Of a stretch of DNA of 26,860 nucleotides, positions 5,681 through 9,100 are shown one piece after another; the first letter of the stretch is position 1, and each line of letters opens with the position of its first letter. The notes under the pieces were generated by a model. It did not search any database. It was given only the letters and a program-made list of their open reading frames with translations, and was not told the origin of the DNA. Location: NCBI GenBank assembly GCA_030643125.1, contig DAOWML010000001.1:1-26860 (forward strand). Direction: 5' to 3'. The stretch comes from Bacteroidales bacterium. Lineage in GTDB: Bacteria; Bacteroidota; Bacteroidia; Bacteroidales; UBA12077. Made by a program: the position numbers and the translations under genes.

Positions 5681-5706
5681 AAACCGCCTCTTGGGGCGGT
5701 TTTTTA
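5681..5706 (+). terminator. Intrinsic terminator of the sqr operon, possibly bidirectional
   Basis: Stem AAACCGCC (5681-5688) / GGCGGTTT (5695-5702), loop TCTTGG, followed by a T-run that overlaps the stop codon of the convergent gene. Confidence 0.85.
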
Positions 5707-6405
5707 TTGAATACCAATCTTGTTTTTTAACTCTTTAATAAAAGTTTCTTTATCTTGAATATCAGAATTTATTAGTTTATTATACCAGTGATTAACCATT
5801 TCCATATTGTCCATATTCTTATAAATCAGAATTATGTAATAATACGACAAACCATGAATCTGAGATTGAATATTTATATTTCCTTCTAATACCTTTTCAA
5901 AATAAGGAATTGATTTATTTAATTTATTGTTCTGGTATAAATCAAAACCCTTTTCAAATGCTCTTATTTTTTCATTATGTTCATTGTCTAAAATGATGTT
6001 AAAGAATGAAAAGCAAGCATTATTACAGTTTTCAATCAGGTCAATAAATTTAATATTATCAGATATTTTTTCGAAATAGAGTTTAAATTCAAGTACTTCG
6101 CCGATATATGCAAATTTATGTTGATCTGGGCAAGCGGGAATATTTTCTGATTTTATTAATTGATATACTTCGATTCCTATGGAATTTTTGATATAAATAT
6201 TTTCATCGGCACAAAACCAGCCTCCCTGGCTACGTTTGTTTGTTACTTTTAGTGATATTATTGTTTCACTATCGGTAATCTCAATTTTAGTTATTTCAAG
6301 CTCCGGATGACTTTGCTTACCGGCAATAGGATTTTCATATACCTGGGCTTTAGCTAAAAATGGCAGGCAGAAAAGAAAGGCTATAGCTAAAATTTGTTTT
6401 TTCAT
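5704..6405 (-). CDS. Secreted hypothetical protein, beta-rich N-terminal domain plus TPR-like C-terminus
   Basis: Signal peptide MKKQILAIAFLFCLPFLAKA|Q, four Cys in the mature domain, helical tail AFEKGFDLYQNNKLNKSIPYFEKVL...LSYYYIILIY resembling a TPR. Confidence 0.6.
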   Translation of the reverse strand: MKKQILAIAFLFCLPFLAKAQVYENPIAGKQSHPELEITKIEITDSETIISLKVTNKRSQGGWFCADENIYIKNSIGIEVYQLIKSENIPACPDQHKFAYIGEVLEFKLYFEKISDNIKFIDLIENCNNACFSFFNIILDNEHNEKIRAFEKGFDLYQNNKLNKSIPYFEKVLEGNINIQSQIHGLSYYYIILIYKNMDNMEMVNHWYNKLINSDIQDKETFIKELKNKIGIQ

Positions 6406-6476
6406 TATATTTAATTTTTTATAATAATCTAGCAGGGTAAAGGTATTAAAATTATAATGTGTTTTTACTTGGAATA

Positions 6477-6553
6477 ATTGCGTAGCAATGATACTATGGT
6501 AGAAAATTAGTACAATTAATTTTTAGAGCTGCGTAGCAGCGATAGGTTATTTG
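6477..6553 (+). repeat. REP-like units A1 and A2 (13-bp hairpin plus GATA..GTAG tail)
   Basis: A1: ATTGC-GTA-GCAAT + GATACTATGGTAG (6477-6502). A2: GCTGC-GTA-GCAGC + GATAGG.. (hairpin 6528-6540). Both lie immediately after the tnpA stop codon. Confidence 0.8.
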
Positions 6554-6555
6554 TA

Positions 6556-7017
6556 TTATTCATAAAACTGAAATAAATATTGTTCACTAAATTCTATTTT
6601 ATTCTTCTTAAGCAAATGTAAATATTCATCTCTAAACGATCTTTTTTTATGATGATTTTCCTGTTCTATTATATATTTAATTACTGTATCTCTTTGCGAT
6701 CGGGAATATGAAAATGCTCCGTATCCCCTTTGCCATTCAAATCGTTCCGGAACAAGATGATTTTCATTTATCCATTTAGAAGAATTGGATTTAATAACGT
6801 GTAAAACTTTTGATATTGAAATATTTGGGTTTAATTCGAAAAATACGTGAACATGATCTGTAAAACCATTTACCGCCAACGGAAATAATCCCATACCTTT
6901 TATAATTCCGCTAATGTATTCAAAAATACGGTTACGGATTTCCTTTTTCAAAATATTTTCCTTGCCTTGAATTGCAAAAACTGCATGAATGTTAATTTGT
7001 GTATAGGTATTTGCCAT
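6556..7017 (-). mobile_element. tnpA: Stand-alone HUH Y1 transposase, IS200/IS605 TnpA superfamily, REP-associated (RAYT-like)
   Basis: MANTYTQINIHAVF..., HUH motif DHVH, WQRGYGAFSYS, and catalytic helix VIKYIIEQENHH. No tnpB adjacent; flanked by hairpin repeats on both sides. Start placed at ATG 7017 because the 41 extra codons from 7140 are repeat-derived. Confidence 0.88.
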
Positions 7018-7019
7018 AT

Positions 7020-7290
7020 AATGGTTTCTATTGTCCTTATAGGACTTACTTTTGTTGATTGCTACGATACTATTGTTGTCCTTACAGGAACAAATCACAT
7101 TAATTAATGAAAATACTAAAAAACAAATATAATTATTCATTTTATAATATTTCTAATTTACTACCATACTATCGTCCTTCCAGGACTTACTTTTGTTAAT
7201 TACTATTATACTACCATACTGCTGTCCTTACAGGACAAGTCTATTGTTTGTGCATATTGTTATATTAATATACTGTGATTTCTATAGGAC
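7020..7290 (-). repeat. REP-like units B1-B5, inverted relative to the A units
   Basis: GTCCT-nnn-AGGAC hairpins at 7033-7045, 7078-7090 (ends AGGAA), 7174-7186 and 7224-7236, with a degenerate copy at 7278-7290. B3 and B4 are preceded by CTACCATACT, so B3 reads GTCCT-GGA-AGGAC-GATAGTATGGTAG on the minus strand. Confidence 0.8.
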
Positions 7291-7312
7291 AAAACATGAA
7301 TAATTGTTTTAT

Positions 7313-7394
7313 AATAATTGCGTAGCAATGATATTATGGTAGAAAATTATTGTAAATATTTTTTTAAAGCAGCGTAGCTGTGATAGTATTCTAC
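7313..7394 (+). repeat. REP-like units A3 and A4, direct repeat of the A1-A2 block
   Basis: 7313-7349 matches 6473-6509 at 36 of 37 positions (offset 840). A4 is GCAGC-GTA-GCTGT + GATAGTATTCTAC (7369-7394). Confidence 0.8.
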
Positions 7395-7452
7395 AAATAT
7401 ATAATTGAATTTTTTGTAATCTTAATATTTATTAAACTCTGGCGGGGTTTAA

Positions 7453-7485
7453 TTAAAAATGCCCTTCAATATACTCGAAGGGCAT
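7453..7485 (-). terminator. Intrinsic terminator of the FadL-like gene
   Basis: ATGCCCTTC (7459-7467) / GAAGGGCAT (7477-7485), a 9-bp perfect stem followed on the minus strand by a T-run, 22 bp past the stop at 7508. Confidence 0.75.
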
Positions 7486-7507
7486 GTAAATATCAAATTA
7501 TTTTTAA

Positions 7508-9100
7508 TTATTCAGACTTTTTACCGAATTTAAAATCAAAGCCAATAGCAATAAATAAATTGTCTCTGTTGTAAGTTTCTGTAACAGTTTCTATATTAGT
7601 TGGGCTTCCTGCAATATTATAATCGAATTTTTTATCATCTTCAACATACATTGTATAAGCAACAGCCAGATTTAAGTCGATCTTTGGAGTAATTGAATAA
7701 GCACCACCTAAACCATATGTATTTGAAGAAATCTTATAATCCATATCAGTCTGGAATTCCTCACTTACACCTGATTGTGCCCTTAAATAACCACCACTAA
7801 CAAGTATTTTATCTGAAATATTGTATTCAAGACCTAATGCCCATTCCCAGTAATTGTTATCTATTATATCTTCATTTTTGATAGCGTTACCAAGAGCATC
7901 TTTATGGCCATAGTCTGCAGATTTATCAAAATAATAGTGCATTCCGGTTGATAATAAGAATTTGTCAGTGATTTTATAATCTGCACCAACGGTTAATAAA
8001 GCTGGCATATCATTTCTTTTAATTTCACCGTCAGGGTATTTATATAAAGGTGTTAAACCGTCATAGCCATAAAGAAACCCTTTTCCTTCTTCAACATTAT
8101 TTTCCAGTTCAATTTTGGTTTGGAATTCATACTTTAAACCAATATTTAATTTATCGTTAGGGCTAATATTTACACCAATAATAGGAGTGATGCCTGAGCC
8201 CGTTTGTTCTATATCTGCTGTTTGATCTTCAAGGACTGTAGCTTTTAAATCCATACCAACAGCACCAGCACCAAAAGCTTGAGATGCTTGACTATTTGTC
8301 ATTCCTGATTGATATAACCCGAGACTGGTAAGTATTGCAATTCCAGTTGGATCTGTAAATGGATCATCAGCACCTAAAAATCCACCTGTTATATAATCAC
8401 TAATATCATTTGATGTCGCTTCAAGATCATCGCTTACACCTTCAAGAAATGTGCTTCCGGGTACAATTGTTCCACCCATATTTACGGTAATGTCTTTTAA
8501 ATATCCATTATAAGTATTTTTGGCTGTAACATATCGACCACCTAAATACATAGAAAATACATCATTAATTTCATAAGATACACCTAACTGGTATCCCCAG
8601 AAAACAGAACTGCCTTCTAAATATGCGTTCATATTATAACCTGTAACTCCTTGTGTGGTAAAAGCTGGAACTAAGTCAGCAATCCCCATTTCAAAAGAAG
8701 GTAAACCTTTGCCAAATTCAGCAGTACCACCACCACCAATTACATTAACACCAAAAGAGAAAGCAAATTTACCGGTATTATATGATGCGTATATGCTTGG
8801 AAGTATAGGAACAGTTACAGAACCTTCGTAATCAACAGGAGAGTTATTTAAATACGAGTAGCTTGAAGTTATTGTTCTGTTCTGAAATAATGTTTGGTTG
8901 TTTATAGACACATAAAAGCCATCGCCTAATTTAGTAAGACCGGCCGGATTATAAAAAACAGCATCTAAATCGGTTGTAGCGTCGCGAGCGAACATTCGAA
9001 CCCATGCTGCACTTTGGTTAGTATTGTGAACAATACCACCCGAATAAGAGAAAAATGGCAGGCTTAGTAAACCTACTAAAAGTAAAGTTATTCTTTTCAT
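7508..9100 (-). CDS. OmpP1/FadL/TodX-family outer-membrane beta-barrel transporter
   Basis: Signal peptide, hatch-domain motif DLDAVFYNPAGL, amphipathic beta-strands, C-terminal LFIAIGFDFKF. Confidence 0.8.
   Translation of the reverse strand: MKRITLLLVGLLSLPFFSYSGGIVHNTNQSAAWVRMFARDATTDLDAVFYNPAGLTKLGDGFYVSINNQTLFQNRTITSSYSYLNNSPVDYEGSVTVPILPSIYASYNTGKFAFSFGVNVIGGGGTAEFGKGLPSFEMGIADLVPAFTTQGVTGYNMNAYLEGSSVFWGYQLGVSYEINDVFSMYLGGRYVTAKNTYNGYLKDITVNMGGTIVPGSTFLEGVSDDLEATSNDISDYITGGFLGADDPFTDPTGIAILTSLGLYQSGMTNSQASQAFGAGAVGMDLKATVLEDQTADIEQTGSGITPIIGVNISPNDKLNIGLKYEFQTKIELENNVEEGKGFLYGYDGLTPLYKYPDGEIKRNDMPALLTVGADYKITDKFLLSTGMHYYFDKSADYGHKDALGNAIKNEDIIDNNYWEWALGLEYNISDKILVSGGYLRAQSGVSEEFQTDMDYKISSNTYGLGGAYSITPKIDLNLAVAYTMYVEDDKKFDYNIAGSPTNIETVTETYNRDNLFIAIGFDFKFGKKSE

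Follow-up and report, generated by a model that had tools for sequence, protein, structure and literature searches.

The window analysed here is a stretch of 26,860 nucleotides, contig C26 of the source assembly of a Bacteroidales bacterium (G000, a 2.3-Mb metagenome-assembled genome (MAG) from marine sediment, in 340 contigs, 79% complete and with 31% G+C). Region 6406-7453 of the window, which lies between a 233-aa gene and a FadL-like gene, holds a single gene, tnpA, for a transposase of the Y1 HUH type, set among short hairpins that are each followed by a 3' tail. The enzyme belongs to subclass 1.2 of the IS200-like TnpA_Y1 transposases by its motifs, hidden Markov model (HMM) scores and fold, and comparison with related loci makes it likely that the hairpin-tail unit, which recurs across Bacteroidota, is the DNA substrate of the subclass 1.2 enzyme. 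As established by reading the sequence and with a repeat finder, the order is A1, A2, tnpA (minus strand), five inverted B units (7020-7290), A3 and A4; the features are listed below, with unit types u1 to u4 and with scores from R1, a covariance model of the unit.

6477-6502, plus strand: A1 (type u3), hairpin 6477-6489 (ATTGC-GTA-GCAAT), tail 6490-6502 (GATACTATGGTAG); 38.1 bits with R1.
6528-6553, plus strand: A2 (type u4, gene-proximal), hairpin 6528-6540 (GCTGC-GTA-GCAGC), tail 6541-6553 (GATAGGTTATTTG), without TGGTAG.
6556-7017, minus strand: tnpA, 153-aa Y1 HUH transposase, IS200-like subclass 1.2, with DHVH, WQ and YIIEQENHH.
7020-7045, minus strand: B1 (type u1, gene-proximal), GTCCT-ATA-AGGAC then AATAGAAACCATT, without TGGTAG.
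7062-7091, minus strand: B2 (decayed u2), 4-bp stem with a bulged A, tail AATAGTATCGTAG shifted by 3 nt.
7161-7186, minus strand: B3 (type u2), GTCCT-GGA-AGGAC then the consensus tail GATAGTATGGTAG; 38.7 bits with R1.
7211-7236, minus strand: B4 (type u2), GTCCT-GTA-AGGAC then AGCAGTATGGTAG; 30.6 bits with R1.
7270-7290, minus strand: B5 (relic), 3' hairpin arm lost on its own strand; 0 kcal/mol, unfolded.
7317-7342, plus strand: A3 (type u3), hairpin 7317-7329 (ATTGC-GTA-GCAAT), tail 7330-7342 (GATATTATGGTAG); 40.7 bits with R1, the top score in the genus.
7369-7394, plus strand: A4 (type u4), hairpin 7369-7381 (GCAGC-GTA-GCTGT, with a G.T closing pair), tail 7382-7394 (GATAGTATTCTAC).

An initial annotation of the sequence had counted nine hairpin-tail units. 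When folded as single-stranded DNA (ssDNA), eight of these gave a hairpin of 4 or 5 bp (-2.7 to -4.8 kcal/mol) and one, the relic B5, gave none; B2 is bulged, and its counterpart in the orthologous locus of G024 has the intact form. The 13-nt consensus tail which the same annotation ascribed to the units is intact (TATGGTAG) in only four of them (at 6490, 7161, 7211 and 7330); the tails of A2, A4 and B1 start like the consensus but do not have GGTAG. The four stem types, the order of the units and the inversion of the B units were confirmed, as were the intact HUH and tyrosine motifs and the lack of a tnpB gene, and the spacing of adjacent units, given as about 50 bp, is 50-52 bp. GTAG occupies tail positions 10-13, 9 nt past the hairpin foot. 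A2 and A4 differ by a compensated change in the middle stem pair (T-A to A-T). The pairs A1-A2 and A3-A4 are direct copies of each other over approximately 74 bp, with 85% identity; an excisable piece bounded by this direct repeat (840 bp) was considered, but found no support from the layout analysis. The tnpA stop codon lies 3 nt past the A2 tail, and the foot of the B1 hairpin lies 15 nt 5' of the tnpA ATG. With up to 3 mismatches, the tail occurs 15 times in the window, versus 5.6 +/- 2.5 times in shuffled sequences, none of 100 shuffles reaching 15; 8 of the 15 matches fall within 6490-7394.

The tnpA protein matched Pfam Y1_Tnp (2.7e-25, 89 bits) and scored above the cut-off of the NCBIfam IS200/IS605 model NF033573 (72.6 bits, cut-off 55) and below that of the REP_Tyr_transpos model NF047646 (22.1 bits, cut-off 80). 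We take the protein to be 153 aa in length, rather than the 194 aa of the longest open reading frame, which runs to 7140, because the homologues begin, as it does, at MANTY; most of them are 153 aa, and the upstream extension is absent from them. The homologues come from a comparative set of 84 loci, comprising 4 loci from the genus and 80 fetched homologous loci (47-65% identity) titled Bacteroidales, Flavobacteriales, Cytophagales, Chitinophagales, Sphingobacteriia, Ignavibacteria, Balneolaceae and, in some cases, Acidobacteria; the set includes isolates of Pedobacter psychrophilus, Labilibaculum filiforme, Seramator thermalis and Alkalitalea saponilacus. A Y...Q..HH motif was present in 77 of the 84 homologues, and their alignment contains 22 invariant columns, with F128, E131, Y132, L136, Y147 and F149 invariant in the C-terminal part.

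An AlphaFold (AF2) model built from 48 homologues had a pLDDT (predicted local distance difference test) of 91, and Foldseek placed the ISDra2, IS608 and IS200 TnpA structures first (approximately 1e-7), with 4ER8, the E. coli TnpA_REP structure, in 30th place (1.3e-4). By sequence, the nearest solved structures found with phmmer were likewise IS200/IS605 transposases, and 4ER8 was not among the phmmer matches at E up to 1. The initial annotation had described the locus as a system of repetitive extragenic palindromes (REPs) and a REP-associated tyrosine transposase (RAYT). An assignment to RAYT/TnpA_REP (class 2 Y1) was ruled out by the 22-bit score on the RAYT model, against a cut-off of 80, by the motif Y---Q--HH in place of Y---NP, and by the IS200/IS605 identity of the structural relatives. 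Features of subclass 1.2 were found: DHVH, WQ, Y---Q--HH, a length of 153 aa and approximately 30 conserved C-terminal residues, together with low copy number. G000 carries four Y1 paralogues, the window tnpA and the genes on C17, C201 and C271, which are 32-39% identical to it, all with a motif of the NQ-EHH type. The window tnpA is single-copy in G000, although collapsed copies are possible in a genome that is 79% complete, and the several near-identical copies per genome that mark IS200/IS605 elements (subclass 1.1) were not found there.

In order to define the unit, hairpins were located relative to TGGTA in the 84 loci. A perfect 5+3+5 hairpin ended exactly 7 nt upstream of TGGTA at 207 of 773 sites, and at each of the other offsets from 0 to 30 there were 10 sites at most. 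The pairing was then left unselected: at TGGTA sites with the linker R-N4-T-W, all five pairs were formed in 175 of 295 cases, versus 3 of 729 at a control offset. A position table of 185 distinct units from 52 loci contained 25 different stems, with a GTA loop in 99 units; on the 5' side an A is conserved at -1, the 5' arm reads G/A-Y-C-C-C, and the tail reads G-A-n-A-n-T-A/T followed by TGGTA, then G/A and A-rich sequence. These comparisons show that the hairpin with its tail is a genuine DNA element, under selection and linked to the enzyme lineage, its tail conserved by sequence and its stem by pairing. The near-fixed tail and the 25 stems suggest recognition of the tail through its sequence and of the hairpin through its shape, as had been proposed from the window; the further proposal of interchangeable stems did not hold without qualification: the stem arms are compositionally polar, so that stems cannot be exchanged freely. 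The remark that GTAG lies 9 nt 3' of the hairpin, and not at its 5' foot, was borne out in the window and in the homologous loci alike; GT[AG]G at the 5' foot, as in REPs, is not a property of the unit, in which GTAG falls instead at tail positions 10-13.

The arrangement of the units around the gene is also conserved. The nearest upstream hairpin was on the sense strand with its tail toward tnpA in 40 of 45 loci, the nearest downstream hairpin was inverted in 46 of 51, and in 21 loci the downstream hairpin began 2-8 nt past the stop codon, which places the stop inside the tail. Read on the tnpA sense strand, the minimal cassette consists of u2 (with TGGTAG), u1, tnpA, and then u4 and u3 inverted, so that all tails point toward the gene; the gene-proximal u1 and u4 do not have GGTAG and the outer u2 and u3 have it. 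G018, with its four units and no more, has this minimal form. From one unit to the next in the same orientation the distance is about 50 nt. An extra module lies upstream of the gene in G000 and G024, another downstream in G024, and G008 has three tandem modules; the surplus units in the window derive from such duplicated modules. In G008 (L004:1960-2480) the three copies are of a four-unit module of approximately 236 bp, and in one Bacteroidia MAG (L042:2049-3094) ten units stand in tandem downstream of tnpA with a period of approximately 95 bp.

Other Y1 paralogues were examined at 40 loci fetched from the genus and the order. All had the subclass-1.2 tyrosine motif and fell into three further clades, each represented in G000, and each bracketed by its own set of inverted hairpins, none with TGGTA. 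In G000 these subclass-1.2 genes, at C17:2000-2452, C201:196-639 and C271:3481-3894, lie between inverted GC-rich hairpins of their own, and in the C271-type clade the stop codon is in the loop of GGGC-TAAA-GCCC. High copy number was sought for the paralogue hairpins in G000, and all were low, the top one, GGGC-N4-GCCC, having 15 copies and being the only one with more than 10. Flanking inverted hairpins were thus present in all four subclass-1.2 clades examined, which contradicts the published description of the subclass but is not one of its defining criteria.

Hairpins placed in this way could act on RNA or transcription, as terminators, as insulators or in the control of tnpA translation, with the tail conserved for that purpose. 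In most loci there is indeed a hairpin 6-40 nt 5' of the ATG and another 2-30 nt 3' of the stop codon, and IS200 provides a precedent, having a terminator hairpin at its left end and a stem that occludes the ribosome-binding site. The stems, however, are of just 5 bp (-3 to -5 kcal/mol as DNA) with no T-run; units are found facing either way, some of them in arrays and some far from any tnpA, and an action through RNA would hardly account for the conservation of a 13-nt tail whichever way it faces. An Rfam search of region 6200-7600, at E up to 1, found no family. We therefore regard a role of this kind as very improbable.

In order to gain insight into the number and distribution of the units, R1 was run over 37 genomes of the genus. 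It gave 5 matches in G000 and 24 at most in any genome, compared with more than 100 for a typical REP; outside the window, the unit family was present in G000 only at C156:2348-2445, as three gene-less units. A single-copy gene with one other unit site indicates that G000 has neither a high-copy REP family nor a multi-copy insertion sequence (IS). Units and enzyme tended to occur together: 16 of the 17 genus genomes with a homologue of at least 44% identity had 1-24 units, and 8 of the 14 without a close homologue had none, counts to which related genomes do not contribute independently. In a search of five genomes, a degenerate tail pattern, RWWAKTATGGTAR, performed no better than its reversed control, and a hairpin-aware pattern gave, in five genomes other than these 37 (four from isolates, one a MAG), approximately 5-14 matches, versus 3-13 for the reversed-pattern control.

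The borders of the cassette were examined by comparison with other members of the genus. The relevant features of the window are as follows.

5704-6405, minus strand: the 233-aa gene, with no Pfam match; its N-terminus is signal-like by eye, unscored.
6406-7453, no strand: the cassette as an indel, its borders approximate in diverged intergenic DNA.
7455-7486: conserved hairpin (ATGCCCTTC, 9 nt, GAAGGGCAT) 3' of the FadL-like gene and probably its terminator.
7508-9100, minus strand: FadL-like outer-membrane barrel gene.

The hairpin at 7455-7486 is kept in all genus members and forms the right border of the empty site. In at least 10 other congeneric species, BLAST coordinates leave 8-170 bp between the left gene, which starts at 6405, and the FadL terminator (approximately 7455); where the sequence of empty sites was read, 12-25 bp separate the left gene's start codon from the terminator. 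The cassette occupies the syntenic site, with the same neighbours, in G000, G024, G018 and G050, and it has been lost from G052, whose left gene is as near to that of G000 as G024's is (92%). At this G052 locus (L203, on contig C106) there remain one unit in which TGGTA has become TGATA and a TACCA tail remnant; the approximately 100 nt of foreign DNA between the remnants include a long inverted repeat of unrelated sequence (GTGATTTTTAGTGTTTTTGTG with its complement). Empty sites in congeners, four syntenic carriers and the G052 remnant together indicate a single entry at this site, vertical inheritance thereafter, and the possibility of loss. Between G000 and G024, the ratio of nonsynonymous to synonymous substitution (dN/dS) for tnpA was 0.30 at a dS of 0.21; from this comparison of coding sequences, tnpA is under purifying selection. 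The copies in G005 and G008 (69% identity) apparently occupy a different common site, with a left flank that is shared by eye. On one contig, from a different sediment metagenome, 6414 is followed directly by 7454; it looks like an empty-site relative, one side of the joint having only 28 nt. No excision or circle joint was found in the contigs of four sequencing runs; a joint that 'goes back 837' was rejected as excision, the left doublet of a relative aligning better to A3-A4.

That the whole cassette is an insertion relative to congeners gives it an IS-like history. Multiple identical tnpA copies at unrelated sites, the pattern which the initial annotation had set against its own proposal, were not found; the gene is single-copy and syntenic in four species. 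Such a history could be that of an ordinary but nearly inactive IS, in which the whole cassette moves, the hairpins are its ends, and the gene-less modules described below are internal-deletion derivatives. The clean empty sites in at least 10 congeners, the close bracketing of the gene by hairpins in every clade examined and the matches of both HMM and fold to IS200/IS605 transposases would all be expected of it, as would the C156 module, which keeps the order of the ends and in which the tails of u4 and u1 meet directly, as though tnpA had been taken out. An ordinary IS is difficult to reconcile, however, with one copy per clade per genome among paralogues just 32-39% identical, or with a locus that has stayed at one site in four species at a dS of approximately 0.2 or more. 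Its ends would be inverted, unlike the direct ends of IS200/IS605, with the conserved tails facing inwards, and there are extra arrays and tails-outward doublets without the gene; moreover, subclass 1.2 was described as lacking IS properties (Quentin et al. 2018, PMC6006769). On balance we consider this explanation unlikely.

The gene-less modules were compared in turn. The C156 module is an insertion common to G000 and G024 and absent from seven congeners, with approximate borders; its order is u3 u4 u1, to which G024 adds u2, the tails of u4 and u1 meet as GATAG-TTTT-CTATC, and by this order of units it is the cassette minus tnpA. Related copies in G024, G052, G053 and G002 start with a terminal repeat, GTAACTAATCAG; in the G024 group an 8-bp duplication was seen by eye (L137), and C156 in G000 has the left terminal inverted repeat (TIR) only; neither a TIR nor a target duplication was seen at the tnpA cassette. 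G000 contains a family of miniature inverted-repeat transposable elements (MITEs) of 210-280 bp, with TIR GTAACTAATCAG(T) and unrelated interiors, one subfamily of which carries the four-hairpin module. Its hairpin-free copies are as follows.

C96:11869-12082: hairpin-free MITE copy in G000.
C142:4516-4777: hairpin-free MITE copy in G000.
C292:2655-2875: hairpin-free MITE copy in G000.
C306:6721-7003: hairpin-free MITE copy in G000.

Three of the four hairpin-free pairs had 8-bp target duplications (GTTTATTT, AAATTCTT and AAAAGCTT). In G005, at least seven copies of an element of approximately 250 bp carry u1 u2 u3 u4 between CACTATTGTCCGG repeats, most with 9-bp duplications. These G005 loci (L013-L020, for example L014:120-370) have the TIR CACTATTGTCCGGTAAAA and AT-rich target duplications, and the terminus of the element looks like a unit cut short just before the place of TGGTA, with one arm and 7 nt of tail. 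Ends of the CACT type were also seen in G011 (L190) and, incompletely, in Labilibaculum (L113, L114); pairs of such TIRs 1-2 kb apart, as for an autonomous element, were not seen in G005, G011 or Labilibaculum. HUH enzymes are not known to make target duplications, so the MITE-borne modules have probably spread by hitch-hiking on another transposase. In number the units are not REP-like, as had been supposed; the dispersed copies examined lie mostly in MITEs with TIRs and target duplications, which points to spread by another enzyme. Gene-less four-unit modules are also present in Labilibaculum and in the Pedobacter and Seramator isolates, those of the latter two having an inner doublet of u2 and u3 with tails outward and no TIR by eye. 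The genome-wide search and the REPIN-like doublets that the initial annotation had called for yielded one further site in G000 (C156) and tails-outward doublets in Pedobacter and Seramator, at low copy number.

Another explanation is that the hairpin modules are part or cargo of TIR MITEs moved by a DDE transposase, that their adjacency to tnpA reflects insertion preference or capture, and that the Y1 enzyme is inactive on them. The seven G005 copies with their CACTATTGTCCGG repeats and duplications would fit, as would the modules of G000 and the G024 group, which adjoin the GTAACTAATCAG TIR of an 8-bp-duplication family that also exists hairpin-free, and the CACT-type end in G011 and Labilibaculum. 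Beside tnpA, however, a search of the 84 loci for the CACT-type TIR gave 1 match, versus 4 in the reversed control. The bracketing of the gene by hairpins, with the stop codon inside the tail, is conserved phylum-wide, each enzyme clade has hairpins of its own, and the Pedobacter modules appear TIR-free; the presence of the module in two unrelated MITE families looks like capture and not origin. We judge this explanation to be improbable.

We consider it somewhat probable that the locus is a self-contained subclass-1.2 Y1 cassette whose cognate sites consist of a hairpin and a 3' tail, with the build of an IS and behaviour resembling that of a REPtron, that is, of a RAYT with its REPs. The site would be the 26-nt unit: a stem of 5 bp whose 5' arm is rich in C, a loop of 3 nt, in most cases GTA, and the tail G-A-n-A-n-T-A-T-G-G-T-A-G, with exactly 7 nt between the hairpin foot and TGGTA. 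The transposases of IS608 and ISDra2 bind a subterminal hairpin on ssDNA, and the right-end cut falls approximately 10 nt 3' of the hairpin. By analogy with the IS608 right end, the subclass-1.2 enzyme may bind the hairpin on ssDNA through its shape and arm composition, read the tail by sequence, and cut in or beside TGGTAG, which, at positions 8-13 past the foot, is the foremost candidate for the sequence that is bound and cut. If the IS608 rule applies, tails that point toward the gene would make the gene the part that is not excised, and the excisable piece would be a tails-outward doublet (u2 inverted, then u3), as in the REPIN; such a doublet fits a stationary gene with gene-less doublets and four-unit modules elsewhere. 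It is thus from known Y1 systems that we infer binding, the position of cleavage and a biological role for the units.

Several observations weigh against this cassette model. The single entry of the whole cassette suggests that the gene can move together with its hairpins, which the IS608-style rule does not foresee, and a 5' guide tetranucleotide of the IS608 kind, sought in the position table, was not found, only the A at -1 being conserved. The unit count is low compared with REPs, with little sign of ongoing copying by the enzyme, and many of the dispersed copies are inside MITEs with TIRs and 8- or 9-bp duplications. Four genomes have a few orphan units and no close homologue, and G005, with 21 units second only to G008 (24), has an orthologue that is split across two reading frames. 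This orthologue (L017, G005:C8:222300-223900; 69% identity) consists of two overlapping pieces in different frames, which may represent a real frameshift or an assembly error.

A bolder form of the cassette model, which we put forward tentatively and hold to be possible at best, is that it represents a third kind of partnership between a Y1 enzyme and DNA, beside IS200/IS605 ends and RAYT-REP systems. Here the 13-nt 3' tail would encode both specificity and the cleavage site, and the gene would be locked between inward-facing sites; tails-outward doublets would be cut and pasted and would ride unrelated TIR MITEs, and each enzyme clade would co-evolve with a private site.

Y1 HUH enzymes serve as sequence-specific tools for cutting and joining ssDNA, and their RAYT members are a textbook case of transposase domestication. 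Subclass 1.2 was an orphan in the 2018 account, being near IS200, with no IS behaviour and no partner DNA reported. A candidate 26-nt substrate of exact geometry, with natural variants in the form of 25 stems, several tail variants and clade-specific alternatives within one genome, brings the subclass within reach of direct tests in vitro. The system is also an example of how recognition can move from a 5' foot of the hairpin to its 3' tail, and it occupies a position between the IS and the REPtron, combining the architecture and insertion history of the former with the copy number and inheritance of a domesticated gene.

Subclass 1.2 has been described as near the IS200 transposases but without IS properties, and is entered as "REP: no" (Quentin et al. 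2018, BMC Genomics 19:475, PMC6006769); Table S1 of that study, which lists manually identified REPs, has no subclass 1.2 entry and no unit of the hairpin-3'-tail kind. A literature search found no later paper that takes up the partner DNA of subclass 1.2. The window enzyme resembles the published members in DH[IV]H, WQ and Y---Q--HH, in length (approximately 148-150 aa as published) and in the conserved C-terminal domain of approximately 30 aa, as well as in low copy number, with published paralogues approximately 36% identical, occurrence in Bacteroidetes (or Cyanobacteria) and no IS-like multiplication (PMC6006769). Unlike the published description, every clade examined here lies between inverted hairpins, and the window clade has the 26-nt unit. 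What is new relative to the literature consulted is that subclass 1.2 genes have flanking inverted hairpins, and that the window clade has a defined hairpin-plus-3'-tail site.

REP-flanked TnpA genes are known in Bacteroidota, as the initial annotation had noted, but they belong to subclasses 2.4 and 2.6 and not to the subclass of the window enzyme (PMC6006769). Subclass 2.6, which occurs in Bacteroidetes, and class 3, with its 'atypical secondary structures', are alike in having Y1 genes beside unusual, manually found hairpins with copies elsewhere; subclass 2.6 differs in its 179 aa and YIH[QN]NP motif and class 3 in its CnGA 5' foot, and the published structures of both carry a 5' foot, whereas the window units carry a 3' tail (PMC6006769).

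The IS200/IS605 elements IS608 and ISDra2 (PDB 2VJV, 2XM3) are the nearest sequence and fold relatives of the window enzyme, and the position of right-end cleavage in IS608, approximately 10 nt 3' of the hairpin, matches that of TGGTAG here. Their ends, however, have the same orientation on one strand and are cut outside the hairpins, whereas here the ends are inverted and the tails point toward the gene, and the window system has no conserved 5' guide tetranucleotide, no tnpB and no multiple identical copies.

With the REPtrons, namely E. coli TnpA_REP (RayT/YafM) with REP/BIME (bacterial interspersed mosaic element) sequences and the group 3 RAYTs with REPINs, the locus shares a single-copy, vertically inherited Y1 gene that has cognate hairpins on both sides and in both orientations (PMC3333891, PMC3479197, PMC8266576); at least two cognate palindromes in inverted orientation beside such a gene, a RAYT-like trait, are present here. 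Shared as well are a hairpin with a short conserved motif containing GTAG, and gene-less inverted doublets elsewhere in the genome. In REPtrons the conserved GTAG beside the hairpin is bound and helps to select the cut (PMC8266576), but it stands directly at the 5' foot of a longer stem, of 8 bp in S. maltophilia (PMC8266576), whereas in the window GTAG is in a 13-nt 3' tail beyond a 5-bp stem and 3-nt loop. The REPtron protein is of class 2, with Y---NP, unlike the window protein with its 22 bits on the RAYT model, and REPs number in the hundreds versus the 5-24 units found here. Set against these systems, the locus comes closest to an IS200-type element in its build and, apparently, to a REPtron in the way it works.

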